In this document: piece after piece, positions 38,760-63,954 of the stretch
Layout of the letters: each line of letters opens with the position of its first letter
Numbering within the stretch: the first letter of the stretch is position 1
DNA from: an uncultured Muribaculaceae bacterium
Lineage (GTDB): Bacteria > Bacteroidota > Bacteroidia > Bacteroidales > Muribaculaceae
Assembly: GCA_910578665.1 (NCBI GenBank)
Contig: CAJTQU010000007.1
Location: 26,179-90,178 of the forward strand
Reading direction: 5' to 3'
DNA length: 64,000 nucleotides
The notes under the pieces: generated by a model
Told to the model about the DNA's origin: nothing
The model's database searches: none
The model's input: only the letters and a program-made list of their open reading frames with translations
Made by a program: the position numbers and the translations under genes

Positions 38760-39548
38760 TTAAGATTTTCGCTCTACCGATCTTATTACTCTTATGCTAA
38801 TTTCGTATAACAGATACAACGGGATGGCAACAAGTATTAAAGTCATAATATCAGGAGGCGTTATTATCGCTGCAATAACACATATGGCAAGAAATGCGTA
38901 ACTGCGATATTTTATCAGATATGATGATTGAACCAATCCCATCCGCCCTAATACATAGGCTACGACAGGCAGTTGGAACACAAGACCCATCATAAGCGTA
39001 AGAGTCACAAAAGTAGATATATAGCTATCAAGTGTTATAGCGCTATGCACTTTGTCTGCCACCGAATATGTTCCCAGAAATCTGAAAGATATTGGAAATA
39101 AGACAAAATAACTCATAAATATGCCAATAATGAAAAGCAGATATATTATACAAACTATCTGCACGGAATATTTCTTCTCGTTATCTAACAAAGCTGGCGA
39201 AACGAATTTAAACAATTCATAGAGAATGAACGGCGAAGAACAAAACAAACCCAAATAAACCGAAGTAGTTATATGTGTCATAAACTGACTTGACAAATCT
39301 GTCGCTATCAAGTCTATATGAAATGCTCCAAAACTGAATTCCGGCTTAAACGTACGTATTAAATCTTCCAACCAACGATAAGTGCAGAAGTCAGGTTCGC
39401 TTGGAGACAGCAATACGGAAAACGTTACGTCTTTAAAAGCAAATATCAAACATGCAAATATAAGAGTTACAGCCAATATGCGAATTAATATTTTTCGGAG
39501 GACATCAAGATGCCCTCCGAATGTCATGAAAGATTTTTCCGATGACAT
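38760..39548 (-). CDS. tatC: twin-arginine translocase subunit TatC
   Basis: 262 aa. The N-terminus ...GGHLDVLRKILIRILAVTLIFACLIF... matches the HLxELRxRLI start of TatC. Six hydrophobic segments. Starts 3 nt after the tatA stop. Confidence 0.85.
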   Translation of the reverse strand: MSSEKSFMTFGGHLDVLRKILIRILAVTLIFACLIFAFKDVTFSVLLSPSEPDFCTYRWLEDLIRTFKPEFSFGAFHIDLIATDLSSQFMTHITTSVYLGLFCSSPFILYELFKFVSPALLDNEKKYSVQIVCIIYLLFIIGIFMSYFVLFPISFRFLGTYSVADKVHSAITLDSYISTFVTLTLMMGLVFQLPVVAYVLGRMGLVQSSYLIKYRSYAFLAICVIAAIITPPDIMTLILVAIPLYLLYEISIRVIRSVERKS

Positions 39549-39551
39549 AGA

Positions 39552-39782
39552 TTAATTTTTTCGTTCTGGAGAAGTAGCCGGAGATTCCTCCGGCAATATA
39601 TCACTATCTGGCATGTCATTGCCTTTTATATCAGTTGAAACCTCTTTCATTCCGTCTTTGAACTCACGGACTCCCTTTCCAAGTCCGCGCATCATTTCGG
39701 GAAGTTTTTTACCTCCAACTAAAAGGATAGCGAGTCCTCCTATCAATAACAACTCGGTAGTACCAATAAAACATAGCATCAT
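39552..39782 (-). CDS. tatA: twin-arginine translocase subunit TatA/E
   Basis: 76 aa with one TM followed by an amphipathic helix: ...LLLIGGLAILLVGGKKLPEMMRGLGKGVREFKDGMKE... ATGA overlap with the upstream 95-aa gene. Confidence 0.85.
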   Translation of the reverse strand: MMLCFIGTTELLLIGGLAILLVGGKKLPEMMRGLGKGVREFKDGMKEVSTDIKGNDMPDSDILPEESPATSPERKN

Positions 39783-40066
39783 AACAAAACAATCATTCCG
39801 GCGTTACTATATATATTACAGTCAGAAAAATCTATTTCCCAACTTCCATTATCCGCACTTTCCCAAGCATACTTGACAGACATTGACGACCACCAATTAC
39901 GAAAAGAAGTCTCTGTCTCAGCCAAATCTTTAACAAGTTTCTCGTAAAGATCTTCATTATCAGATGTGAGAATCTTTGCTAACTCAGCAAGTCCACTTTT
40001 TCTCTCAAAAAGCATCTGTATTGTATCTCTTTCTTGAGAATTAACCTGACCAATAAGTTTTTTCAT
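39779..40066 (-). CDS. small cytoplasmic accessory protein of the Cys-repeat peptide system
   Basis: 95 aa, MKKLIGQVNSQERDTIQMLFERKSGLAELAKILTSDNEDLYEKLVKDLAETETSFRNWWSS... Helical and acidic, with no signal peptide. Size and context fit my recollection of the 'CXXX repeat peptide modification system protein' family. Confidence 0.5.
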   Translation of the reverse strand: MKKLIGQVNSQERDTIQMLFERKSGLAELAKILTSDNEDLYEKLVKDLAETETSFRNWWSSMSVKYAWESADNGSWEIDFSDCNIYSNAGMIVLL

Positions 40067-40145
40067 TTTAAATCATATAGGTATTTGAAATATTCTTAAA
40101 TAAGAATGATTCTCTCCATTTAAAACTAGTAAACAAGCCCTGCTA

Positions 40146-40631
40146 TCATGCCCTGAACATATAATATGCTCTTATTCTGCAATTACTGCCACAATTATTG
40201 AAAACAACACTCTTTTCCCATAATATAATCAAGTCACTCCAATTTCCATTTTGAGAACAAGACTCAATTATACCGATCTGTTTACCATCCATTATAATCT
40301 TATTATCATTGACCTGGCAGTTGACAGTCTCAACTGTAGTCTCTTGATTATCTAGATAGCTAATTAAAAAACCGTCTACCAGATTTTCACCTATGGGAGC
40401 CACACATATATATGTATACGTATATGCGTTATAGTCAACAATTTGATCTTGACCACCTTCTTCTGAATAAAGGTCTATCTGTTTACATTCCATCCATAAA
40501 CCTGGAAACTGGTTTGTAATACCAGATGTTGTTTCACTTAGTTCGTCACTATTGTCATCTTTACTACATGATGTTATAATAATATTAGCAAAAAACAGGA
40601 TTATAAAACTCAGATATTTTATTTGTTTCAT
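40146..40631 (-). CDS. lipoprotein with an acidic post-Cys stretch (possible surface-export signal)
   Basis: The ORF-track start 40640 is a TTG. The ATG at 40629-40631 gives MKQIKYLSFIILFFANIIITSCSKDDNSDE... (lipobox ITSC, then SKDDNSDE). 161 aa, no recognisable family. Confidence 0.65.
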   Translation of the reverse strand: MKQIKYLSFIILFFANIIITSCSKDDNSDELSETTSGITNQFPGLWMECKQIDLYSEEGGQDQIVDYNAYTYTYICVAPIGENLVDGFLISYLDNQETTVETVNCQVNDNKIIMDGKQIGIIESCSQNGNWSDLIILWEKSVVFNNCGSNCRIRAYYMFRA

Positions 40632-40646
40632 TTTTAACAATTTAAA

Positions 40647-41603
40647 TTATTGATTAATAATACAATCTAAAGGATCAAGATAGTCAATTTCAGCAATGGA
40701 AATTCCTTCAACAATCGGGGTTCTATCACTTTTTAAATTTTCCAGAAAATTTTTTGAAGCATTCCGTTCGCAATGCGCAAGAAGACACTGTATTCTACCA
40801 GGAGTATTCACTTCGCGCGTTACGCGCTGATTAAGCCAAACACACCTCTTACACTGATATGCATCACATATCTTACATATGGGAGCATGGTTAATATCAA
40901 AAAGATAATGATTCTTTATGAATATACCATCTGTTAGTGAACCTATATTCTCCATGCCGACACTATAAAATCCGGGACATATATAAAATAAGCCATCCGG
41001 AGATACCGTGATCGATTCAACAGCCGCATTACAGTTATTCATATCCTTAAGTATCACACGGTCGGTAATAAGATTAAATTGAACCGCATTGCCTTGTGAA
41101 TACAACTCTGACAATAGAGGTATCAGACTATCAAGAAACGATTTATATGCAATGACTTGGCTCTCAGAGACTGACTCTATATCCGTAATAACTACATTAA
41201 GACGACTCAGCCGGTGTAAAAGCTCCCTCATTATATCACCACTTTCAAGTAGATCTTTAAATGTTGTGCGAATTACGCAAGTGATATCCAATTTCAATCT
41301 AAAATCATAAAGATCTGTCCATGAATCGAAAACTATTATTTGAGCTTTATCTAAAGTTTCCTTTACAGGGTAGTCAAAGGGCATAATCTTTATATGATCG
41401 ACACTCTCAACAACATCGTTTATTTCCACTGGCAATTCTTCTCGCGGATAAACAAATTGGATATAAAGATTTTCCAGCATACTGAATCTAACAATCTCAT
41501 GAAGAGTGTCAATATCAGTAAAACTGTCTTTAATACTTTGATTTGGATAATGACAAAAAGATATGGCATTAGCACCAAGTGGAACAATCAGATATTTCAA
41601 CAT
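40647..41603 (-). CDS. SPASM-type Cys-cluster protein lacking the radical SAM CxxxCxxC motif (second maturase component)
   Basis: 318 aa. The N-terminal half has a single Cys (ISFCHYP). The C-terminal half has ...NNCNAAVESITVSPDGLFYICPGF..., ...PICKICDAYQCKRCVW..., ...QCLLAHCER... Seven-nt overlap with the rSAM gene. The size fits my recollection of the 'CXXX repeat peptide maturase' family. Confidence 0.6.
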   Translation of the reverse strand: MLKYLIVPLGANAISFCHYPNQSIKDSFTDIDTLHEIVRFSMLENLYIQFVYPREELPVEINDVVESVDHIKIMPFDYPVKETLDKAQIIVFDSWTDLYDFRLKLDITCVIRTTFKDLLESGDIMRELLHRLSRLNVVITDIESVSESQVIAYKSFLDSLIPLLSELYSQGNAVQFNLITDRVILKDMNNCNAAVESITVSPDGLFYICPGFYSVGMENIGSLTDGIFIKNHYLFDINHAPICKICDAYQCKRCVWLNQRVTREVNTPGRIQCLLAHCERNASKNFLENLKSDRTPIVEGISIAEIDYLDPLDCIINQ

Positions 41604-42817
41604 AACTTATAATTGTTATCCCGAGCCGTCAAAGAGGTACTACAAAGTTTTTCTTCAGACTCCAGTTTGTTAAACAATTTATTCCAGTAATAATTATTTG
41701 CTCTCACACGCGCCTTGTGCATTTTGCAGATAGCGACCGACCGTTGATATATAGTGTCTGTATCAGCTGAATCATAGTTCTCTCCTTGACACCAGGCACA
41801 TCCACTGGCCACTTCGCATTCTATACACTCACGAGGTGACTGGCTTAACCGATCAAGAGATAGGAATGGCCTAAGAAGATCATTGTTGATACCATCTACA
41901 ACATTGCCGATGACGATCGGCTTCTTCTCTCTTAACGAATAAGCTGCAAAGCGAGTACATGGGTAAAAAAGACCTTTTGCATCAACAGCTAACATCCGTC
42001 CTGCTCCACACCAATTCTGATTGTCTACTTTAGAATCCAATGGTTTGCCAATGCTTTCTGAAAAAAATGAACAAGCATGATCCTCATAGTATCCGTGATT
42101 GATAATTTCATCTGCCAGTTCAATCAGCTGCTTTTCGAAAAGCTTATCATCACCTTCTTTCCAAACATTCTCAAATACGACATTGATATTAACCTCTTTG
42201 ATACCTAATGAATAAAGATGCAGCACACTCTCTCTGATATATGGAATATCAGCTGAACTGATAGTGACTTTAGTAGCTCCGTCCGGAAATTGAGACAGCC
42301 AAAGCGGTATGTTACGCACAACATCGTCATAGCTCCCCCGTTCAGGACCGCTACCTTTCCAGATCCTATTTAAGTCATGTTTTCGTTTTGTCCCATCAAT
42401 CGTTATCCCAATAGATAGATGTTCTCTATTTTTTTCTATGTATCGCTGTACTTTTTCACTATCGTAATTGATCCCATTAGTAGAGAACGAAAATCTGTAT
42501 GAATTGAACCATTTATGATTTAGTCGGAACATTTCGGTTTTTATGTAATCACAAATCTTATCAACAAGATCAATTTCTAGAAATGGTTCGCCCCCGATAA
42601 AATCCCATACCACCGAATCATCTTTAAAATCATCTTCATGGATAAGTATGTAATCAATTGCTGCCTTAGCAATTTTCCACTCCATTCGTTCGCTTTCATT
42701 TTTTCCTACAAGATAGCAATACTTGCAAGCAAGCTGGCAATCTTTCGTAACTATGAAAGTAATATTTTTGGTTCTACTTTCTCGCCAAGGGCGTTGTTGC
42801 TCCTTAATAGCACTCAT
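41597..42817 (-). CDS. radical SAM / SPASM-domain peptide maturase
   Basis: 406 aa with CxxxCxxC at C27/C31/C34 (TKDCQLACKYCY) and GGEPFL. C-terminal auxiliary-cluster cysteines: ...NWCGAGRMLAVDAKGLFYPC..., ...CIECEVASGCAWCQGENY..., ...CKMHKA... It lies directly downstream of the two Cys-repeat precursor genes. Confidence 0.85.
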   Translation of the reverse strand: MSAIKEQQRPWRESRTKNITFIVTKDCQLACKYCYLVGKNESERMEWKIAKAAIDYILIHEDDFKDDSVVWDFIGGEPFLEIDLVDKICDYIKTEMFRLNHKWFNSYRFSFSTNGINYDSEKVQRYIEKNREHLSIGITIDGTKRKHDLNRIWKGSGPERGSYDDVVRNIPLWLSQFPDGATKVTISSADIPYIRESVLHLYSLGIKEVNINVVFENVWKEGDDKLFEKQLIELADEIINHGYYEDHACSFFSESIGKPLDSKVDNQNWCGAGRMLAVDAKGLFYPCTRFAAYSLREKKPIVIGNVVDGINNDLLRPFLSLDRLSQSPRECIECEVASGCAWCQGENYDSADTDTIYQRSVAICKMHKARVRANNYYWNKLFNKLESEEKLCSTSLTARDNNYKLC

Positions 42818-42883
42818 ATAATGTGTATTTACATAATAAAGAAATGCAAGTATACCGAAACAAATTCGATATACTCACATTGA

Positions 42884-43201
42884 TTATCTACTTCCATATT
42901 TACATCCTCCGACACATCCTGTTTTGCAAGATGACAAACAAGCTCCTTTACATCCCGATTTACAGGAGTATGGGTGATACTCCATATTTGCACGGCAAGA
43001 GTCTCCACATGATGTTGAGCATGTGGAGCCACAACCAGAACAACCAGAAGACGAACCACCGCCTCCTCCACCTGGTTCATCCTCTGGATCACACGATGTC
43101 AGAAATGTCGGAACAATAGTTAATGCTAATATGGGCATAATTGCCGATACACTCTTCGAGAAAAACTTTCTTCTCGAAATCAGATTTTCATTGCCAATCA
43201 T
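42884..43201 (-). CDS. Cys-repeat precursor B: Tat signal + lipobox + Gly linker + 11-Cys CxxxC core
   Basis: 105 aa: MIGNENLISRRKFFSKSVSAIMPILALTIVPTFLTSC|DPEDEPGGGGGGSSSG CSGCGSTCSTSCGDSCRANMEYHPYSCKSGCKGACLSSCKTGCVGGCKYGSR. The twin-arginine motif is SRRKFFSK, and the lipobox is LTSC at Cys37. Confidence 0.8.
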   Translation of the reverse strand: MIGNENLISRRKFFSKSVSAIMPILALTIVPTFLTSCDPEDEPGGGGGGSSSGCSGCGSTCSTSCGDSCRANMEYHPYSCKSGCKGACLSSCKTGCVGGCKYGSR

Positions 43202-43203
43202 AA

Positions 43204-43479
43204 TTATTTACCAGAGTTATAACACATACCTCTACATGTTCCCTGGCATAAACCACTGCAACTAGTGCATGCATCACTACATTTTCCCGAGCAAGTTCCA
43301 GCACATCCGTAGCAACCACCACGACACGTTGTACAACTTGTAGCATCTGAATTAAGAGAATGGGCCAGGACAGGCGCATTAGCCAGAACTATCGTACCTA
43401 AAATAGGCAGGACTCCTTTCGCCGCGTTTTTAAAGAACTCGCGTCGTGACTGTAATTCTTTGTTTCGATTTTTATCCAT
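43204..43479 (-). CDS. Cys-repeat precursor A: Tat signal + 11-Cys CxxC/CxxxC core
   Basis: 91 aa: MDKNRNKELQSRREFFKNAAKGVLPILGTIVLANAPVLA|HSLNSDATS CTTCRGGCYGCAGTCSGKCSDACTSCSGLCQGTCRGMCYNSGK. The twin-arginine motif is SRREFFK, with a VLA-type signal peptidase I site. The stop is 2 nt before the precursor B start. Confidence 0.8.
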   Translation of the reverse strand: MDKNRNKELQSRREFFKNAAKGVLPILGTIVLANAPVLAHSLNSDATSCTTCRGGCYGCAGTCSGKCSDACTSCSGLCQGTCRGMCYNSGK

Positions 43480-55770: not shown

Positions 55771-56658
55771 ATGAGTGTAAATCCCCCCGTGACGCTGCGT
55801 GAAATAGCCAGGTATCTGGATACCAATCTGTCATGCGATGTGCTGGCCATAGACAATTTCAGTCCCGACCCGGAACTGGAGGTATACCCCGTGCGCATTG
55901 ACGCCCTTATCATCATGCTGTGCACATCAGGAAATGGATGCGTGCACATAGACCTGAACAAATATGACCTGAAAAAGGGTTCTCTGCTGGTAGTGCATCC
56001 GGAAAACTACATACAGGGAGTGACGCACGATGATGATTTCGGGTCGCAAGCAGTGATCTGTTCTCCACGCGTTGTCGAGCACATCCTGCCCAAACTGACC
56101 TCTATGCTGCCCATCATAATGCAGCACCGCATGGCTCCGGTGACAGACCTCACTCCCGAAGAAGCCGCAGCCATTTCGTCATTCTACACTTTTGTAAAAT
56201 TGAAATTAGACGGACCTCCAACCACTTACCAGAGGCATAAGGTACTATGCATGCTCCAGGCTGCCCTGTATGAAATGATGGATGTCCGCATGTCACATTT
56301 CGAGCTGCAGGAGCAAAAGCAGTCGCGCAAAGAAGAAATAATGGCACGCTTCATACTGTCCATATGCAAGCACTTCAGGACAGAGCGCCAAGTAGGATTC
56401 TACGCAAAACAATTGTGCATCACACCCAAACATCTCAGTTCGGTTGTGAAAGAGGCCAGCGGCCGGACAGCCGGCGAATGGATAGACCACTACGTGGTAA
56501 TGGAGGCCAAGATGCTGCTAGGCAGCACCGACCTCACAGTGCAGGAAATAAGTTCTAAACTGAACTTTGCCAACCAGAGTTTCTTTGGCAAATACTTCAA
56601 GCACAACACAGGATTGTCCCCCACTGAGTTCAGACACAAACAATTGCATAATAAGTAA
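55771..56658 (+). CDS. AraC-family transcriptional regulator
   Basis: 295 aa with a C-terminal double HTH (...FYAKQLCITPKHLSSVVKEASGRTAGEWIDHYVVMEAKMLLGSTDLTVQEISSKLNFANQSFFGKYFKHNTGLSPTEFR). Confidence 0.8.
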   Translation: MSVNPPVTLREIARYLDTNLSCDVLAIDNFSPDPELEVYPVRIDALIIMLCTSGNGCVHIDLNKYDLKKGSLLVVHPENYIQGVTHDDDFGSQAVICSPRVVEHILPKLTSMLPIIMQHRMAPVTDLTPEEAAAISSFYTFVKLKLDGPPTTYQRHKVLCMLQAALYEMMDVRMSHFELQEQKQSRKEEIMARFILSICKHFRTERQVGFYAKQLCITPKHLSSVVKEASGRTAGEWIDHYVVMEAKMLLGSTDLTVQEISSKLNFANQSFFGKYFKHNTGLSPTEFRHKQLHNK

Positions 56659-56671
56659 AAAATAAATCTTT

Positions 56672-57868
56672 ATGACTTACATTAGAAAGACGGTGTATGT
56701 AGTGATAGCGGTACTGTCCGCCATATCGGCAGCCTGCTCCCACGACCACAACCATGAACACGACCATGACCATGAGCACGAAGGACATGACCATGCGGCA
56801 GAAACAGGCGAAAAAGGTCATGACGAAGATTCTCATAAAGGCATCGTGGTATTTACTGCCGCACAGGCAAAGGCAGGCGGTGTAGAAGTGAAAGAGATAC
56901 AGCCTGGCAGTTTCTCGGGAGTAATCCGAACTGCCGGAGAAATTATGGCCGCCCAGGGTGACGAACGCAGCGTGCCGGCCACGGTGGCCGGCATAGTCAG
57001 CTACGCCGCAGGCACTCTCACACCCGGAGCACCGGTAGGTGCCGGACAAGCTTTGTTCCGCGTCTCGGCCAAAGGAATTTCAACAACTGACAACACTGCG
57101 GCACTCAGAGCCACACTTAGCAGTGCCGAGGCCCGTCTAAAACGTGCGGAAACCCTTCTGGCAGACAAACTGATAACACAGACTGAATATGATCTGATAT
57201 TTGGCGAGGTGGCGGCAGCCCGCGGCGCCCTCTCTACCCCGGCCACATCGGCTGTATCGGGAGCGACAGCCACATCTCCCATTTCCGGCTATCTTACCGA
57301 ATGTCTCGTACGTCCCGGCGATTATGTGGAAGTGGGCACTCCGCTGGCACTCGTAAGCACCAACCGCAAGCTACAACTGCGTGCCGACGTACCGCAAAGA
57401 TATAATGGCGAGCTTAAGCAGATAAGGGGCGCAAACATTGTGATTCCCTCTGACAAAGACCGCACCCTGGCTCTTGGCAAATATGATGCAAAGGTAGTGA
57501 GCTACGGCCGCAGCGGCACAAGCACCAACAGCCTTTACATGCCCGTGATAATAGAATTTAACAATCCCGGCGGCCTCACAAGCGGCACCCCCGTGCAAGC
57601 CTACCTGCTAACAGAGGGACGCAGCGGTGTGATCAGCGTGCCGCGCACGGCGCTGACCGAGGAAGAGGGTGTATATTTCGTGTATATAGAGGTGAGTCCC
57701 GAACACTTCCGCAAGCAACGCGTGGAAACAGGACTCAGCGACGGAGTCAGCACCGAGATCGTAGAAGGGCTTAAAGGAGGCGAACGCATCGTTGTCAAGG
57801 GCGCCACACTGCTCAAACTGGCTGCAAACTCAGGCAAAGCTCCGCAGGGCCATACACATAACCACTGA
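56672..57868 (+). CDS. RND efflux periplasmic adaptor (CzcB/CusB-like), His-rich
   Basis: 398 aa. A signal/lipobox-like ...SAISAACS is followed by HDHNHEHDHDHEHEGHDHAAETGEKGHDEDSHKG. Membrane-fusion-protein body. The C-terminal tail is ...APQGHTHNH. Confidence 0.75.
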   Translation: MTYIRKTVYVVIAVLSAISAACSHDHNHEHDHDHEHEGHDHAAETGEKGHDEDSHKGIVVFTAAQAKAGGVEVKEIQPGSFSGVIRTAGEIMAAQGDERSVPATVAGIVSYAAGTLTPGAPVGAGQALFRVSAKGISTTDNTAALRATLSSAEARLKRAETLLADKLITQTEYDLIFGEVAAARGALSTPATSAVSGATATSPISGYLTECLVRPGDYVEVGTPLALVSTNRKLQLRADVPQRYNGELKQIRGANIVIPSDKDRTLALGKYDAKVVSYGRSGTSTNSLYMPVIIEFNNPGGLTSGTPVQAYLLTEGRSGVISVPRTALTEEEGVYFVYIEVSPEHFRKQRVETGLSDGVSTEIVEGLKGGERIVVKGATLLKLAANSGKAPQGHTHNH

Positions 57869-57874
57869 TAAGCC

Positions 57875-60800
57875 ATGCTGAACAAGATAATAAGGTTTTC
57901 ACTGCATAACCGGTTAATAATCATGCTCCTGTCACTACTTATCGTAGTGGGGGGCTGCTATGTGTCCACACGTATGGAGGTGGACGTGTTTCCCGATCTC
58001 AACGCCCCCACGGTGGTGGTAATGACCGAGGCTCCGGGCATGGCCGCCGAAGAGGTGGAACAGACCGTGACCTACCCGATAGAGACAGTGCTGAACGGTG
58101 CGGCCGGAGTGCGCCGCGTGCGTTCGTCAAGCACGACCGGATTTTCATCCGTATGGGTGGAATTCGACTGGGATACCGACGTGTACCACGCCCGTCAGAC
58201 CGTGTCGGAGCGTCTGGCCACAGTCAATTCACAGCTGCCGGAAGGGGCCGAGACCCCGTCGCTGGGAGCACAGTCTTCGATATTGGGAGAAGTGATGTTT
58301 GTGGGTCTGACATCCGACCAGACATCGCTGCGCGACCTGCGCACTCTGGCAGACAAGACCATAGCGCCGCGTCTCCAGTCTGTATCCGGAGTATCGCAGG
58401 TTAACGTGCTTGGCGGTGATGTTAAAGAGTTCCAGATACTGCTCTCGCCGGAACGCATGGCCAAATGGGGTGTCACCATGGCAGACGTGGCAGATGCCAC
58501 AGAAGGTATGACGCGCAATGCCACCGGCGGCGTGGCATATGACTATGGCAACGAATATATAATACGAGGCCTTGCATCTACAACTGATGCCGACATAATA
58601 GGGGCAGCCGTAGTCAAGCGTACAGAGGGCGGCGAACCCGTTATTCTGGCAGACATAGCCGATGTGCAGGTGGGAGACCAGCTTCCACTCACTGGCAAAG
58701 CCTCTCTTTCAGGCAAACCGGGCGTTTTGCTCACCGTGACCAAACAGCCCGGCGTAGGCACAATCGACCTTACAGAGCGCCTGGACAAATGCATCGCCGA
58801 CATGAAAACCAATCTGCCGGCCGACATAAAGGTAAGCACCGACCTGTACCGGCAGCGTGACTTCATAGACGCATCCATCAACAATATCAAGAAAAGCCTT
58901 ATAGAAGGCGCGGTATTCGTAGCAATAATACTGTTTGTATTCCTGATGAATCCGCGCACCACCCTGATTTCACTGGTCACCATACCGCTGTCACTGCTCG
59001 TGACATTCATTACCCTCAGGCTAATGAATCTGGGCATCAACACCATGAGCATAGGCGGTATAGCCATAGCTATAGGCAGCCTGGTGGATGACGCGATAGT
59101 GGACGTCGAAAACGTATACAAGCGTCTGCGGCAAAACCGCGCCCTGCCCGACGACAAACGCCGACGCACAATCGATGTGGTATACGATGCATCCAAAGAG
59201 GTGCGCATGCCCATACTCAACTCCACGATCATAATCGTAGTCAGCTTCGTACCCCTCTTCTTCCTGCAGGGTATGGAAGGACGCATGCTTATCCCACTGG
59301 GTATAGCTTTCATCACATCATTATTTGCTTCCACACTGGTAGCCCTGACACTCACCCCCGTGCTATGCTCTATGCTACTGCCCAATACCGTGGTCAAAGA
59401 TCACGAACCACGTATCGTAAGGTGGCTCAAAAGCGGCTACGAAAGATGGCTGCTGCAGGCCCTGCGTTTCAAATGGTGGGTGCTGGGCTGTACCGGCGCG
59501 TTGCTGGCAGCAGCACTTGTAATGTTCTTCACACAAGGCCGGGATTTCCTCCCTCCCTTCAACGAAGGCTCATTTACAGTCAATGTAAGCACCCTGCCGG
59601 GCATATCGCTTGAAGAGAGCGACGCCATCGGCCGCGAGGCAGAACGTCTGCTGCTCAGTGTGCCGGAAATAAAGAAAGTGGCCCGTAAGACAGGACGCGC
59701 CGAGATGGACGAACATGCTCTGGGAGTGAATACCTCGGAGATAGAGGCCCCATATGTTGTGTCAGACCGCAGCAAGCAGGAAATAGCTGCCGAAATAAGG
59801 GAGAAACTTAGCGCGCTCCCCGGAGTGAACATAGAAATCGGACAACCCATCTCACACCGTATCGACGCGATGATGAGTGGTTCGGAAAGCAACATCGCCA
59901 TAAAGATATTCGGCCCCGACCTGCACGAACTACTCCAGATAGGCAATAATGTGAAAGAGGTAGTCGAGAAGATACCGGGACTGACCGATGTCAACGTGGA
60001 ACAGCTGACCGACCGTCCGCTGATCGACATAAAGCCGCGTCCCGAGATGCTGGCCCGTTACGGCATAACGATGCCCGAATTCACACGGTTTGTCAACATG
60101 GCCCTGGCCGGCAAACAGGTGAGCGAGGTGCGCGAAGGTAATTCCGTATACGCGCTCACAGTCAAGATAGATCCGGGAAGCCGCAACGACATAGAGCAGA
60201 TAGGCTCGCTCATGATCGATGCCGGCGACGGCAGCAAAGTGCCGCTCGAGACCGTGGCTGAAATCAGATCGACTTCAGGCCCCGGCACAGTAAGCCGCGA
60301 GGATGTAAGCAGGCGCCTCACCGTGAGCGCCAACGTGCAGGACAGAGACCTGGGCAGCACTGTCGACGATATCAAGAAACTGGTAGCCGGACGTGTGGCA
60401 CTCCCACAGGGATACCATATAAGCTACGGAGGCCAGTTTGAAAGCCAGGAAACCGCTTCGCGGATACTGATGCTTGCCAGCCTGTTCTCCATACTGGCCA
60501 TATATATGCTTCTGTATAACCAGTTCCGCGACCTGCGCCAGAGCGCCGTGATCATGCTTAACCTGCCTCTGGCCCTTATCGGCGGCGTCTTTGCGATCTC
60601 GTTCACCAGCGGCGTCGTGAGTATTCCGGCCATAATCGGCTTCATATCACTGTTCGGTATAGCCACGCGAAACGGCATGCTGCTCGTAGACCGTTACAAC
60701 ACACTGCGTGACGAGGGTCTTCCCGCCCACGAGGCAGTCATGCGTGGTTCGCTCGACCGTCTGAACCCGATCCTGATGACAGCGCTCACATCCGCGCTAG

Positions 60801-60979
60801 CACTCGTACCATTGGCTGCCGGAGGCTCATTGCCCGGCAACGAGATACAAAGCCCCATGGCAAAAGTCATACTGGGAGGCCTGCTCTCTGCCACACTTCT
60901 CAATGCGTTTGTAATACCGATCATGTACCTTCTGGGCGCGCAGCGCAAACAAAAGCCTGTAACGCTCGAAAAAGAATAA
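57875..60979 (+). CDS. CusA/CzcA-family heavy-metal efflux RND transporter
   Basis: 1034 aa, MLNKIIRFSLHNRLIIMLLSLLIVVGG... 12-TM RND architecture. ...IGGIAIAIGSLVDDAIVDVENV... is typical of the HME-RND TM4. Confidence 0.88.
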   Translation: MLNKIIRFSLHNRLIIMLLSLLIVVGGCYVSTRMEVDVFPDLNAPTVVVMTEAPGMAAEEVEQTVTYPIETVLNGAAGVRRVRSSSTTGFSSVWVEFDWDTDVYHARQTVSERLATVNSQLPEGAETPSLGAQSSILGEVMFVGLTSDQTSLRDLRTLADKTIAPRLQSVSGVSQVNVLGGDVKEFQILLSPERMAKWGVTMADVADATEGMTRNATGGVAYDYGNEYIIRGLASTTDADIIGAAVVKRTEGGEPVILADIADVQVGDQLPLTGKASLSGKPGVLLTVTKQPGVGTIDLTERLDKCIADMKTNLPADIKVSTDLYRQRDFIDASINNIKKSLIEGAVFVAIILFVFLMNPRTTLISLVTIPLSLLVTFITLRLMNLGINTMSIGGIAIAIGSLVDDAIVDVENVYKRLRQNRALPDDKRRRTIDVVYDASKEVRMPILNSTIIIVVSFVPLFFLQGMEGRMLIPLGIAFITSLFASTLVALTLTPVLCSMLLPNTVVKDHEPRIVRWLKSGYERWLLQALRFKWWVLGCTGALLAAALVMFFTQGRDFLPPFNEGSFTVNVSTLPGISLEESDAIGREAERLLLSVPEIKKVARKTGRAEMDEHALGVNTSEIEAPYVVSDRSKQEIAAEIREKLSALPGVNIEIGQPISHRIDAMMSGSESNIAIKIFGPDLHELLQIGNNVKEVVEKIPGLTDVNVEQLTDRPLIDIKPRPEMLARYGITMPEFTRFVNMALAGKQVSEVREGNSVYALTVKIDPGSRNDIEQIGSLMIDAGDGSKVPLETVAEIRSTSGPGTVSREDVSRRLTVSANVQDRDLGSTVDDIKKLVAGRVALPQGYHISYGGQFESQETASRILMLASLFSILAIYMLLYNQFRDLRQSAVIMLNLPLALIGGVFAISFTSGVVSIPAIIGFISLFGIATRNGMLLVDRYNTLRDEGLPAHEAVMRGSLDRLNPILMTALTSALALVPLAAGGSLPGNEIQSPMAKVILGGLLSATLLNAFVIPIMYLLGAQRKQKPVTLEKE

Positions 60980-60987
60980 CCAGCGAG

Positions 60988-62190
60988 ATGAAATCCAATC
61001 ACCCAATCATAACCACTGCCCTGGCGCTTATATGCGCCGGGAGCAGTTTTTCGGCCACCGCACAGTCGGCATTCCCCTCACAGCAGGCCGAAATAATGCG
61101 AAACAACCTCACACTCCATGCACAACACGGAGTGTGCGAGGCCGCGCATGCCGAAAATATGTCAGGTCTAAACCTGCCTAATCCCGAAGTGTCGTTCGGA
61201 TACATGTGGGGGCAACCCTCCGATGTGCCGCACAAGATCAATGTCGAGGCAAGCCAGACTTTCGATTTCGCCACTCTCTCGGGCGCCAAGAAGCGTGTAG
61301 CACGCGCCAACAACGCTGTGGCAGAGGCCGAGTACGCCGGTTCGCGCCAGGCTCTTGCCCTATCGGTGGAAAACGCGCTAATCAACTATGTGTACCAATA
61401 CCAGCTCTGCATCGAGCTCACAAACCAGCTGGCCCAGCTCAAAGGCCTCATGGAGTATGCCGTGAAAGCAATAGACAAAGGCAGCATAACACAATTAGAC
61501 TACAACAATATAGAACTGGAGATGCTTGCCAAAGAGAGCGAACTGTCACAGGCCGGCCAGGGCCTCGAAACAGCAAGGCTGCAACTACGCGCCATGAACG
61601 GAGGGAAAGAGCTGTCTCCCCTGCCCACCGCATGGCCCGAGGCGGCGTTACCGCTGTCGTTTGACCAATGGCTGGCATCGGCACAGAGCACCAATGCCGA
61701 ATTACAGGCCTTACAGGCCGGCGTAGCGCTCACTGCAGAGGAAATCACGCTGCGCAAAAGGGAAAACCTGCCGGAATTCACAGTCGGGTATGCCAACGAA
61801 CTTATAAAGGGTGACAACCACCACGGTATCACTCTCGGCGTCTCCGTGCCCTTATGGGGCAATTCCGGACGCGTCAAGGCTGCCAAAGCACGCGAGGCCG
61901 CCGCACGCATAAACCTCATGACTGCGGCAGAGCAGTACGCTGTCACCAAGCGCACAGAGTACGAGCAGGCCCAGATTCTGGCAAAAACTGCGGACCGCTA
62001 CGCATCGCTGTACAAGCACATACAAGATAAAAACAAGGCTGTTCTTAAAAAAGCGTTCGACTCCGGCACCATCAATGTATTTGAGTTTATCACCGAACAG
62101 AACAATTTCTTTGACTATTCGCTCAAGCACATCGAAGCCATACGAGAATACCAACTGGCACGAGCCGCCCTCTACGCCCCCACTTTTTAA
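60988..62190 (+). CDS. TolC-family outer membrane efflux protein (CzcC-like)
   Basis: 400 aa with a signal peptide and two coiled-coil/beta repeats. Last gene of the adaptor-pump-OMF set. Confidence 0.75.
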   Translation: MKSNHPIITTALALICAGSSFSATAQSAFPSQQAEIMRNNLTLHAQHGVCEAAHAENMSGLNLPNPEVSFGYMWGQPSDVPHKINVEASQTFDFATLSGAKKRVARANNAVAEAEYAGSRQALALSVENALINYVYQYQLCIELTNQLAQLKGLMEYAVKAIDKGSITQLDYNNIELEMLAKESELSQAGQGLETARLQLRAMNGGKELSPLPTAWPEAALPLSFDQWLASAQSTNAELQALQAGVALTAEEITLRKRENLPEFTVGYANELIKGDNHHGITLGVSVPLWGNSGRVKAAKAREAAARINLMTAAEQYAVTKRTEYEQAQILAKTADRYASLYKHIQDKNKAVLKKAFDSGTINVFEFITEQNNFFDYSLKHIEAIREYQLARAALYAPTF

Positions 62191-62230: not shown

Positions 62231-62238
62231 TATATTTG
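62231..62238 (+). promoter_or_regulatory. -7 promoter box (TATATTTG) upstream of the Cys-every-third-residue lipoprotein gene
   Basis: A TAnnTTTG match 75 nt upstream of ATG 62313. A partial -33 (cTTG ending at 62210, 20-nt spacer). Confidence 0.45.
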
Positions 62239-62312
62239 CATCTTAATAGCTAGTTTATGTACACATAGTACAAAAAACTCAGCGTTAATATTCACAATAA
62301 ACAATATGCGTT

Positions 62313-62792
62313 ATGAAGAAACTGATCATTCCATTTATGTCGTTGCTCCTGCTGGCGGCCATGCCGCTGGGCTGCGCGGACGCCTCTGCTAAAAAATACA
62401 AAAAGACCGCCACCGAAGCCTCTGACAACGGCAACATCAATTGCCAGGACTGCGACGGATGCACCGGGTGTGTGGGATGTGTTAACTGCACAAACTGCAT
62501 CGGATGTGTCAATTGTGTCAACTGCCACGGTTGTAATGGCTGTGCCGGGTGTGAAGACTGCGACAATTGCATCAACACGGCTGGTTGCGAGGACTGCGAT
62601 GGCTGTAACAACTGCGCCGGGTGTGAAGACTGTACCAACTGTAAGAATTGCGCCGGATGTGAAGACTGCAAATCATGCGTCGATTGCTCCGAATGCAAGA
62701 ATTGCACAAACTGCGAGGACTGCGAAAACATCAAAAACAAAACAGGTGCAAAAAACATTAAAAACAAAAAGAAAAATTACAAGCGCGCATAA
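62313..62792 (+). CDS. lipoprotein with a (Cys-x-x)n core, 31 Cys in 94 residues; metallothionein-like candidate
   Basis: 159 aa: MKKLIIPFMSLLLLAAMPLGC(21)ADAS... then C44 to C137 with Cys at every third position (CQDCDGCTGCVGCVNCTNCIGCVNCVNCHGCNGCAGCEDCDNCINTAGCEDCDGCNNCAGCEDCTNCKNCAGCEDCKSCVDCSECKNCTNCEDCEN). Only position 89 (Thr) breaks the series. Lys/Asn-rich tail. Confidence 0.8.
   Translation: MKKLIIPFMSLLLLAAMPLGCADASAKKYKKTATEASDNGNINCQDCDGCTGCVGCVNCTNCIGCVNCVNCHGCNGCAGCEDCDNCINTAGCEDCDGCNNCAGCEDCTNCKNCAGCEDCKSCVDCSECKNCTNCEDCENIKNKTGAKNIKNKKKNYKRA
62442..62723 (+). repeat. in-frame 9-bp periodic coding repeat (TGY-NNN-NNN) with a roughly 36-bp higher-order unit
   Basis: A TGC/TGT codon occurs every 9 nt from 62442 to 62723. 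The unit CAGCEDCxxCxx recurs about 4 times. The periodicity produces long open shadow ORFs in other frames and on the other strand (62285..62767 minus, 62470..62808 plus). Confidence 0.85.
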
Positions 62793-62813: not shown

Positions 62814-62847
62814 ATGCCGGCGTTCCTTTAATTTGGAACGCCGGCAT
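62814..62847. terminator. bidirectional hairpin terminator between convergent genes
   Basis: ATGCCGGCGTTCC (62814-62826), an 8-nt loop, then GGAACGCCGGCAT (62835-62847). T-rich on both sides. Confidence 0.65.
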
Positions 62848-62871: not shown

Positions 62872-63954
62872 TCAGCTGTCCAACAAGGCCGGCACCTGCT
62901 TTATATCGCCGGTGCTCTGCACCAGCTCGCCGGCAGCATTGTATATGAAGAATGCCGGCACCGAACCCACATTATACTGCAACGCATTTATACCGCGCAA
63001 ACCATCCGGATCATAAACCACGGCCCACGGCAACGCTTTCGCCGCCTGCCGCCATGCATACTGGTCGGCATCCATACACACCTGGTAAATATCCGCCCGG
63101 CCGCTGTCATACAGTCGTTTCAACTCCAGATTCAGAGCCGGAGCCCCCTCCAGTGTCAAGGCACTGAAAGCCACGACCACTGGTTTTCCTTTTCCCAGAC
63201 GTGAAGACAAAGAAACCTCGCCGCCTCCGACACCGGGCAATGAAATCTCTATCATAGCGCTTTCCCGAGCCTTTATAACCTGCCGCTGCCCCGCTGCCTT
63301 ACGCCGTTCTGCCTGCCCCTGCCGCGCCCGTTCTACAAGCGCTTTGGTGTGCGGATCGTCCGGACGGTAAGTAGCAAACGCCGTCGCCACGGCGGCATAC
63401 TCCGGATCGGTAAACTCTACCAGATACCTGTCTCCCATACGGCGTGTCAGAATATAATAAGTCAATATGCTGCCTTTGCCGTTATGTAAATATTTCATAT
63501 AAACCCTCTTGCGAAACGCATCCAGCGAATCCGGACTGTTATATGCGCCTACCCTGGCAGCCTCTTTTTCAAAAGCAGTCAGCTGCTCGGCCTGCGGTGT
63601 GCCCGACAACACGAAATCAGTGTCAAAAGACTTATAATTCGTCTTAAGTACAAGTGCGTCCACACTGTCCACAGGAAGATACACATACTTTCCGGCAAGT
63701 GCAAGACGATACATTTCAGGCACTTCCGGAGCTGCCGACGAAACACTGAACGAACCGTCAGACGCTATCCTTACAGAATCTATGGCTACCCAGCCGGCAT
63801 CACCGTCCAGACGCTCGAGAAGCATACTCCGGGATCCGGCACCGTCCACAGTGCCCTCAACTGAAAATTTCGGGGAATTGTCGCAGCCGGCCAGCAGCGC
63901 CGCGCCCCCGGCAGCAAGCACAAGGCCTGCCGCCAGCCTGTTACTGGTCATCAT
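62872..63954 (-). CDS. DUF4369-type N-domain + thioredoxin-fold (TlpA-like) lipoprotein lacking the CxxC active site
   Basis: 360 aa with lipobox LLAGC. The C-terminal thioredoxin-like region reads ...KPVVVAFSALTLEGAPALNLELKRLYD..., where TlpA-family proteins normally carry WCxxC. Confidence 0.55.
   Translation of the reverse strand: MMTSNRLAAGLVLAAGGAALLAGCDNSPKFSVEGTVDGAGSRSMLLERLDGDAGWVAIDSVRIASDGSFSVSSAAPEVPEMYRLALAGKYVYLPVDSVDALVLKTNYKSFDTDFVLSGTPQAEQLTAFEKEAARVGAYNSPDSLDAFRKRVYMKYLHNGKGSILTYYILTRRMGDRYLVEFTDPEYAAVATAFATYRPDDPHTKALVERARQGQAERRKAAGQRQVIKARESAMIEISLPGVGGGEVSLSSRLGKGKPVVVAFSALTLEGAPALNLELKRLYDSGRADIYQVCMDADQYAWRQAAKALPWAVVYDPDGLRGINALQYNVGSVPAFFIYNAAGELVQSTGDIKQVPALLDS

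Follow-up and report, generated by a model that had tools for sequence, protein, structure and literature searches.

What does a protein that places cysteine at every third position do beside a metal-efflux operon? This question is raised by a 64,000-nucleotide (nt) stretch of DNA from an uncultured Muribaculaceae bacterium (contig CAJTQU010000007.1 of assembly GCA_910578665.1, positions 26,179 to 90,178), the whole of which we call the window. In it, an open reading frame (ORF) of 159 amino acids (aa) at 62313..62792 (+), the Cys-array gene, begins 122 nt past the stop codon of a TolC-family outer-membrane-factor gene; the original prediction, made from the DNA letters, had put the gap after this "CzcC-like" gene at 120 nt. 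What is new here is a heavy-metal resistance-nodulation-division (RND) operon with what is probably an accessory protein without precedent, which is, if its structural model is right, a beta-solenoid of an undescribed repeat class. Other loci and homologous proteins carry L- and P-numbers where they have to be told apart.

The Cys-array protein consists, in order, of a signal peptide, a D-N-G-N-I-N-C cap, a period-3 Cys array and a Lys/Asn-rich tail. The signal peptide (residues 1-26; 62313..62390, +) has an MKK start, a hydrophobic core and a terminal ADASA, with the likely cut before K, and is followed by a Lys-rich mature N-terminus and the S-D-N-G-N-I-N-C cap that opens the array (62391..62444, +) and recurs in the family and in the orthologues. 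The (C-x-[G/N/D]) array extends over 32 triplets (residues 44-139; 62442..62729, +) and contains 31 Cys, at 44, 47 ... 86 and 92 ... 137, with C21 of the signal peptide in addition; the spacing is 3 throughout, save at T89, where it is 6. The pattern as first described, with 31 Cys over residues 44-137, a single lapse at T89 and a Lys/Asn-rich tail, is thus exactly what the sequence contains. The third position of the triplet is G 11 times, N 11 times, D seven times, and S and E once each, and the middle position, which would face outward in the predicted fold, is variable (V, E, T, A, D, K). Throughout the second half of the array the triplets form a 12-residue super-repeat, CAG-CED-CxN-CxN. 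The basic tail (residues 140-159, with the stop codon; 62730..62792, +) has counterparts in the L010, L012 and L015 orthologues.

At the DNA level, the Cys codons are mixed (20 TGC and 12 TGT) and the array shows loose tandem periods of 18 and 36 nt; because the copies are only 62-68% alike, the regularity is kept at the protein level and not by a young DNA satellite. An antisense ORF of 160 aa (62285..62767, -) is open across the array, and it stays open because the reverse complement of TGY-NNN-RRY repeats rarely yields stops. The L009 orthologue has 3-10 stop codons in every frame other than the array frame, and L010 has one open antisense frame; the antisense ORF shows no conservation in L009, in L012 or in two of the three L010 frames.

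Is the protein exported, and is it a lipoprotein? The first is clear from its Sec-type signal. The N-termini of all five orthologues combine MKK, a hydrophobic core and an A-x-A|K site (ASA|K, ASA|K, TQA|K, MQA|K and MQA|K). The second is uncertain. As a criterion we used [LVI][ASTVI][GAS]C ending the hydrophobic region and conserved among orthologues. The candidate lipobox Cys of the window protein is C21 (62373-62375, +), and a Cys stands 5-6 residues before the A-x-A|K site in four of the five orthologues, mostly in a poor lipobox context. The window protein has M-P-L-G-C, in which Pro at -3 breaks the lipobox rule as we understand PROSITE PS51257; AVC in L010 and SLCC in L015 are poor, ASSC in L009 is acceptable, making it the only one of the five to fit the usual rule, and L012 lacks a Cys at this position altogether. 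The original prediction of a lipoprotein with a standard PLGC signal is therefore upheld as far as export goes, but the lipidation signal is doubtful, given the Pro at -3 and a site, A-x-A|K, that is what all five orthologues conserve.

The genes upstream of the array form an efflux cluster that is headed by an AraC-family regulator (55771..56658, +; Pfam HTH_18, 2e-19, and AraC_binding), in a gene order that is the same in L010 and L011. The RND adaptor, or membrane fusion protein (56672..57868, +), matches TIGR01730 (4e-38) and the CzcB/NccB model TIGR00999 (2.5e-25); it carries a His/Asp/Glu-rich stretch, HDHNHEHDHDHEHEGHDH, right after its lipobox and ends in GHTHNH. Such His-rich adaptor ends recur in orthologues (L007, L010, L011 and L013) whether the array gene is present or not, and the C-terminal pattern G-H-x-H-(N/S)-H is invariant across the clade. 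The RND permease (57875..60979, +) scores 811 bits with the CusA/CzcA heavy-metal efflux model TIGR00914, for which the cutoff is 701 bits, and 8e-270 with Pfam ACR_tran, while the generic multidrug RND models that were run on it scored far under their cutoffs. By sequence, then, the window pump is of the CusA/CzcA, metal-type family. Its fourth transmembrane segment (TM4) contains the motif GSLVDDAIVDVEN, with a double Asp, which is invariant in the clade; we take this double Asp to be shared with AcrB-type pumps and so assign no metal specificity to the window pump. The TolC-family outer-membrane factor (60988..62190, +; Pfam OEP, 1.2e-32) is the last gene before the array.

Does the array gene belong to this operon? 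Synteny was read through homologues of the outer-membrane factor, as direct searches for orthologues of the array protein found none, and gave ten distinct contexts. Half of them, namely the window (L001), L009 (a Prevotella sp. metagenome-assembled genome (MAG); 169 aa), L010 (177 aa), L012 (216 aa) and L015 (198 aa), have a gene with signal peptide, cap and Cys array on the same strand, 79-122 nt after the factor. The outer-membrane factors of these contexts are only 44-49% identical, and the array orthologues, which share the cap KPDK(F/N/D)GNI(N/L)C, are 32-43% identical to the window protein (three aligned). With the slot filled in five of ten factor contexts, and with the TIGR00914 score of the pump, the linkage to a metal-efflux operon that neighbourhood analysis had been proposed to check is borne out, and a tie between the Cys-array gene and the efflux operon is supported. 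The exact window protein was found on contigs from 591 sample blocks, including NCBI assembly GCA_021768115.1 and mouse-gut metagenomes, and the neighbours on those contigs are the same: UvrD-like helicase, AraC, adaptor, RND pump, outer-membrane factor, Cys-array gene, DUF4369 gene and PNPase. In the Prevotella sp. MAG (L009, 322-7786), the factor and array pair stands directly behind gldL, gldM and gldN, which are type IX secretion genes. Neither an RND pump nor an adaptor gene lies near that pair, and for this reason the link seems to be with the outer-membrane factor itself.

A first homologue search with the window protein returned nothing above 57% identity. Scans of genome contigs with the array protein and with the factor confirmed no relatives, probably because tblastn confirmation fails on low-complexity sequence or because the species representative differs, and from metagenome contigs the factor retrieved a single near-identical contig plus two distant paralogues. 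The window protein is missing from a collection of 15 billion proteins yet is present in the gene-position index (the 591 blocks), and the profile search missed its orthologues. Exported members of the family thus look under-represented in protein searches, and how rare they seem there is not to be trusted.

The intergenic region of 122 nt ahead of the gene contains TATATTTG (62231..62238, +), which fits the Bacteroidetes -7 promoter consensus TAnnTTTG, so that the gene does have the box of its own that it was first credited with; the equivalent region has such a match in L010 and L012, and none in L009. Downstream, a perfect 13-bp stem with an 8-nt loop (62814..62847) between the convergent genes is likely to be a bidirectional terminator. 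The convergent gene (62872..63954, -) encodes a DUF4369/thioredoxin-like lipoprotein without CxxC (Pfam DUF4369, 1e-6; a weak match to Thioredoxin_8). Here the original prediction was right about the orientation and the lack of CxxC, but the association does not hold across loci: L017 has an orthologue of this gene (175 of 344 residues identical) only 17 nt past its outer-membrane-factor gene, with no array gene between them, and the other Cys-array loci carry different downstream genes. It is a neighbour of the Cys-array gene, not a conserved partner.

Where does the array itself come from? The original prediction recognised no family, and here it has to be amended. The window protein matches phrog_15341 (PHROGs v4, function unknown) over residues 26-157, with 69 bits and an E-value of 6.8e-19, as do seven of its homologues. 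Out of 1.84 billion, a family profile built from the first 15 homologues retrieved 3,063 cluster representatives with E <= 1e-3; at E <= 1e-10 the number is 678. Most members are 150-260 aa long and without a signal peptide. A recurrent feature of the family is the cap [PV]D[EK]NGNINC, and three kinds of N-terminal start are seen: YW(V/I)DxNGNKW...Y(T/S)xxEA, DxNGNxAxIxYFGSxxxAxxAL and a bare (P/V)DENGNINC. Some members have additional domains (PC4, dGTP_diPhyd_N, U-box, RING or He_PIG). No match to the window protein or its orthologues was found in Pfam (at E <= 1 for the window protein), NCBIfam or PADLOC, and our literature search found no publication describing a Cys-every-third repeat. 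From these sequence comparisons, the (C-x-N/D/G)n family is real, uncharacterised and mainly cytoplasmic and phage-borne, and the window protein is an unusual exported form of it.

Relatives are found in Campylobacter CP220-like phages and in Flavobacterium phage FL-1, where they are annotated 'hypothetical', on IMG/VR contigs, and in the BFVD entries of ChoanoV1 (a giant virus) and Campylobacter virus IBB35; the phage locus L003 is a siphovirus-like early region with Gp157, ERF, SSB and DUF3310. Four phage members (L018, 3881-4744; L022, 3746-4513; L025, 3782-4537; L027, 419-1237) have in common a C-terminal domain of about 110 aa, ...ALDMSxWHxCxTTHCRAGWxVxLAGExG...RFYDSNxxALADM, that has no Pfam match. 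In eukaryote- or giant-virus-like proteins (P0239, P0255, P0260, P0277, P0282, P0314, P0317, P0111, P0302 and P0324; P0291), cap and array are fused to a U-box or RING after a poly-Thr stretch, TTTTTITSNSIPDENGNINC. UniProt labels for the wider family are 'hypothetical' or 'TNFR-Cys domain-containing', the latter being attached, for example, to a family protein of the fungus Lophiotrema nucula. Many ENA proteins (P0006, P0013, P0080 and P0241-P0283) have a conserved upstream extension, VFVSASACNPSFGQGYAHQPRGEKAMKN, ahead of MKNKN...ADENGNINC, which is the likely true start; the extension may come from reading through a conserved non-coding element that precedes the gene. P0266, with the cap KPDKFGNINC, was considered as an exported orthologue and ruled out, as it is non-exported and on a short contig with no efflux genes.

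What fold could such an array adopt? AlphaFold2 gave a mean predicted local distance difference test (pLDDT) score of 60 for the window protein with 16 sequences, and of 72 for the mature protein with 60 sequences (81-89 in the repeats; predicted template-modelling score, pTM, 0.57). DSSP assigns a beta-bridge to every third residue of the model, which is the middle residue of the triplet. Neither model had a significant Foldseek match in the PDB (best E-values 0.09 and 0.19); the weak matches are nearly all beta-helices or solenoids, except for 7jjv, a springtail antifreeze protein that is a polyproline II (PPII) helix bundle. By sequence, phmmer matched residues 45-117 to 1EZG, the Tenebrio antifreeze beta-helix (E 1e-3), and the other match to a solved structure, 8zxl, is composition-driven. 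In repeat statistics over 220 non-redundant arrays, identity at the two variable triplet positions has a peak at lag 4, counted in triplets (z 4.2 and 4.1), and a second one at lag 8. Ser (52%) and Leu (18%) are the chief replacements for Cys, and lapses tend toward adjacent pairs. Because of the lag-4 peak and the Ser/Leu replacements, a 12-residue coil with inward-facing Cys is supported, although this is a matter of periodicity and coil length is not directly seen. The array is thus most likely, on these models, a beta-solenoid that is very thin and has about eight coils of 12 residues each.

Could such a solenoid be held together by disulfides? The mature Cys counts of four exported orthologues are 31, 26, 25 and 41, so that their parity is mixed, and most family members, being without an export signal, presumably fold in places where no disulfides would be expected. 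The array therefore does not depend on complete disulfide pairing. The remaining options are a core packed with Cys, a core that ligates metal, or folding induced by metal.

What, then, might the protein do? Because of its conserved position beside a metal-efflux outer-membrane factor, we favour the reading that it is a periplasmic, thiolate-rich metal buffer or sink and an accessory of the efflux pump; this is offered by analogy and tentatively, as a reading that may well prove wrong. In one Bacteroidales clade, the repeat module would have gained a signal peptide and become a facultative accessory of a His-rich CzcCBA-type efflux system, its gene placed right after the outer-membrane factor with a promoter-like box and a terminator of its own. 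The signal peptide would probably be removed by signal peptidase I at ASA|K, possibly with lipidation at C21 instead. In the solenoid, each triplet would turn its Cys into the core and its second residue outward, with G, N or D at the corner. Once in the periplasm, about 30 thiolates could bind thiophilic ions (Zn, Cd or Cu(I)) and so provide a high-capacity buffer or sink beside the pump.

Several observations weigh against a metal buffer. The array gene is missing from five of the ten contexts (L007/L008, L011, L013, L016 and L017), a glycosyltransferase gene occupying its slot in L007/L008 and L011, and as half of the orthologous operons do without it, the pump does not need it. In L009, L010 and L015, Ser, Leu, Gly or another residue stands in place of Cys in between a quarter and a third of the triplets, and such frequent replacement argues for a role of Cys in the structural core and not as a ligand at every position. 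The phage arrays look, from their sequences, like generic spacers between domains. If the Cys are buried in the core of a solenoid, any metal bound there would be structural and not exchangeable. The repeat region of the window protein is acidic (isoelectric point, pI, 5.2), which does not favour a large number of anionic thiolate sites. Finally, no metallothionein, CusF or other metal-protein model in Pfam or NCBIfam matched.

A bolder form of the metal reading can be imagined, in which the four axial Cys of each coil ligate one metal, giving about eight stacked metal-tetrathiolate sites some 4.8 Å apart. Such an arrangement would amount to a metal-binding fold of a new kind, a metal 'wire' or store. 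Phage and giant-virus proteins would use it, in their thousands, as a rigid spacer stabilised by metal, and Bacteroidales as a periplasmic metal sink coupled to the outer-membrane factor of a Czc-type pump; we think this improbable.

If the Cys are there for structure, the protein might instead be a structural partner of the outer-membrane factor in the envelope, with no part in metal handling: a rigid, Cys-cored or disulfide-stapled rod whose basic tail binds, tethers, gates, plugs or cross-links the channel. Small TolC-associated lipoproteins and the Cys-rich chlamydial OmcA are precedents. This possibility, although on balance unlikely, is the main rival and owes its support to synteny specifically with the outer-membrane-factor gene, including the L009 pair without pump or adaptor, to the tolerance of Ser and Leu at Cys positions, to the use of the array as a structural spacer in phage proteins and to the recurrence of basic C-terminal tails in the orthologues. 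However, the odd Cys counts (31, 25 and 41) speak against full disulfide stapling. Furthermore, half of the orthologous operons manage without the gene, and the extreme Cys content of an exported protein would be left unexplained.

The viral side of the family suggests another role, that of a domesticated phage-family gene which shields the cell surface by masking or blocking the TolC-like channel against phages or bacteriocins for which it serves as receptor; the Llp lipoprotein of phage T5, which acts in superinfection exclusion, would be the model. The family is overwhelmingly encoded by phages and giant viruses, the gene comes and goes between loci whose order is otherwise conserved, which is common for accessory or conflict genes, and it has its own promoter-like box. 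Nevertheless, the members read on viral contigs, and nearly all others, are without a signal peptide, no mobile-element genes flank the window gene and PADLOC gave no match, while an identical protein in 591 sample blocks is unlike a fast-evolving conflict gene. We therefore consider surface protection highly unlikely.

Less credible still is a ribosomal peptide precursor with modified Cys (for example, thioether or thiazoline), matured perhaps by the CXXX radical S-adenosylmethionine (SAM) enzymes 19 kb upstream. A CXXX-repeat radical-SAM system is indeed encoded at 40.6-43.5 kb (TIGR04115, 623 bits; TIGR04119; TIGR04117-like peptides), and there is a very weak match of the array protein to the heterocycloanthracin family TIGR03601. 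However, that match amounts to 11.6 bits (E 0.32) against a cutoff of 35, TIGR04117 does not match, the period is 3 and not 4, the signal is of the Sec type with MKK whereas the CXXX peptides have an RREFF, twin-arginine-like leader, and no maturase lies beside the array gene in L009, L010, L012, L015 or the phage locus L003. Thus, the heterocycloanthracin and radical-SAM substrate readings are rejected on model scores, period and absent maturases, and with them the earlier suggestion of a substrate for Cys-directed maturation; that the array is distinct from the CxxxC peptides of this island was, on the other hand, correctly seen from its period and agrees with the lack of a TIGR04117 match. 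Finally, a non-coding satellite or a chance ORF, with the antisense ORF as good a candidate, is suggested by that open frame and the tandem repeats but is refuted as far as sequence analysis allows and has a negligible chance of being right, as five lineages keep signal peptide, cap and in-frame array despite low identity, other frames of the orthologues mostly have stops, the synonymous TGC/TGT mix goes with repeat copies no more alike than stated above, and phrog_15341 matches strongly; the strain-specific satellite that the original prediction named as its own possible undoing is thus not what the DNA contains.

If the fold prediction holds, this is a hitherto undescribed repeat class, defined by Cys at each third position, a 12-residue coil and the conserved D-x-N-G-N-I-N-C cap; its members number in the thousands and come from phages, giant viruses, eukaryote-like proteins and bacteria. 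The exported Bacteroidales subfamily leads to a testable prediction about the periplasmic handling of Zn, Cd and Cu in gut anaerobes. To our knowledge, periplasmic metal handling in Bacteroidota is poorly characterised compared with that in Proteobacteria. In protein design and in work on metal-binding materials, a thin, regular, Cys-lined solenoid would be of interest.

How does the Cys-array protein compare with known systems? With phrog_15341 and the wider family it shares the (C-x-N/D/G)n array and the D-x-N-G-N-I-N-C cap. However, members of that family are almost all without a signal peptide and have extra N- or C-terminal domains, whereas the exported window protein has no domain besides the array and is encoded on a chromosome beside an efflux operon. 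A structural parallel is offered by the Tenebrio molitor antifreeze protein (TmAFP; 1EZG/1L1I; PF02420), a Cys-rich right-handed beta-helix with 12 residues per coil; a 12-residue super-period is common to both, and both TmAFP and the array, as predicted, are thin beta-solenoids with small inward-facing residues. Precomputed PF02420 matches exist for two family members and there is none for the window protein, which by sequence is not a member of the TmAFP family. Cys comes every 3 residues in the array, in contrast to every 6 in TmAFP, the array is without the T-C-T ice-binding ladder, and the Foldseek TM-score is only 0.24-0.36. Furthermore, TmAFP depends on disulfides, whereas the Cys-array family is mostly cytoplasmic.

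The window also contains, at 38760-43479 (-), a complete CXXX-repeat radical-SAM system of an already-described type that is unrelated to the Cys-array gene. It comprises TatC (38760-39548, -), the CXXX maturase TIGR04119 (40647-41603, -), the radical-SAM maturase TIGR04115 (41597-42817, -; score as above) and two Cys-rich CXXX precursor peptides with RREFF leaders (42884-43201 and 43204-43479, -), the second of which matches TIGR04117 below cutoff. The cluster of Cys-repeat exported proteins that had been noticed in this region is therefore real, with two CxxxC-repeat peptides about 19 kb upstream of the array. These target peptides resemble the array protein in being exported and rich in Cys repeats, but they have period 4, a twin-arginine-like leader and dedicated maturases adjoining them.

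Metallothioneins, including the bacterial SmtA and BmtA, have in common with the array a very high Cys content and CxxC spacing, and high-capacity thiolate binding is plausible. Their models in Pfam and NCBIfam gave no match on the window protein, and the array is denser in Cys, strictly periodic, exported and not cytosolic, and predicted to be an ordered solenoid where metallothioneins have two metal-thiolate clusters. The parallel in genomic setting is with CusF, SilE/PcoE and CzcE/CzcI, which are likewise small exported proteins, encoded in or beside an operon of the CusA/CzcA family and rich in metal-ligand side chains. They bind through Met, His or Trp and are not repeat proteins, and they have no sequence relationship to the array protein, which has no Pfam or NCBIfam match. 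Nevertheless, as an accessory of a metal-type RND pump, the Cys-array protein would be functionally analogous to CusF, SilE or CzcE.

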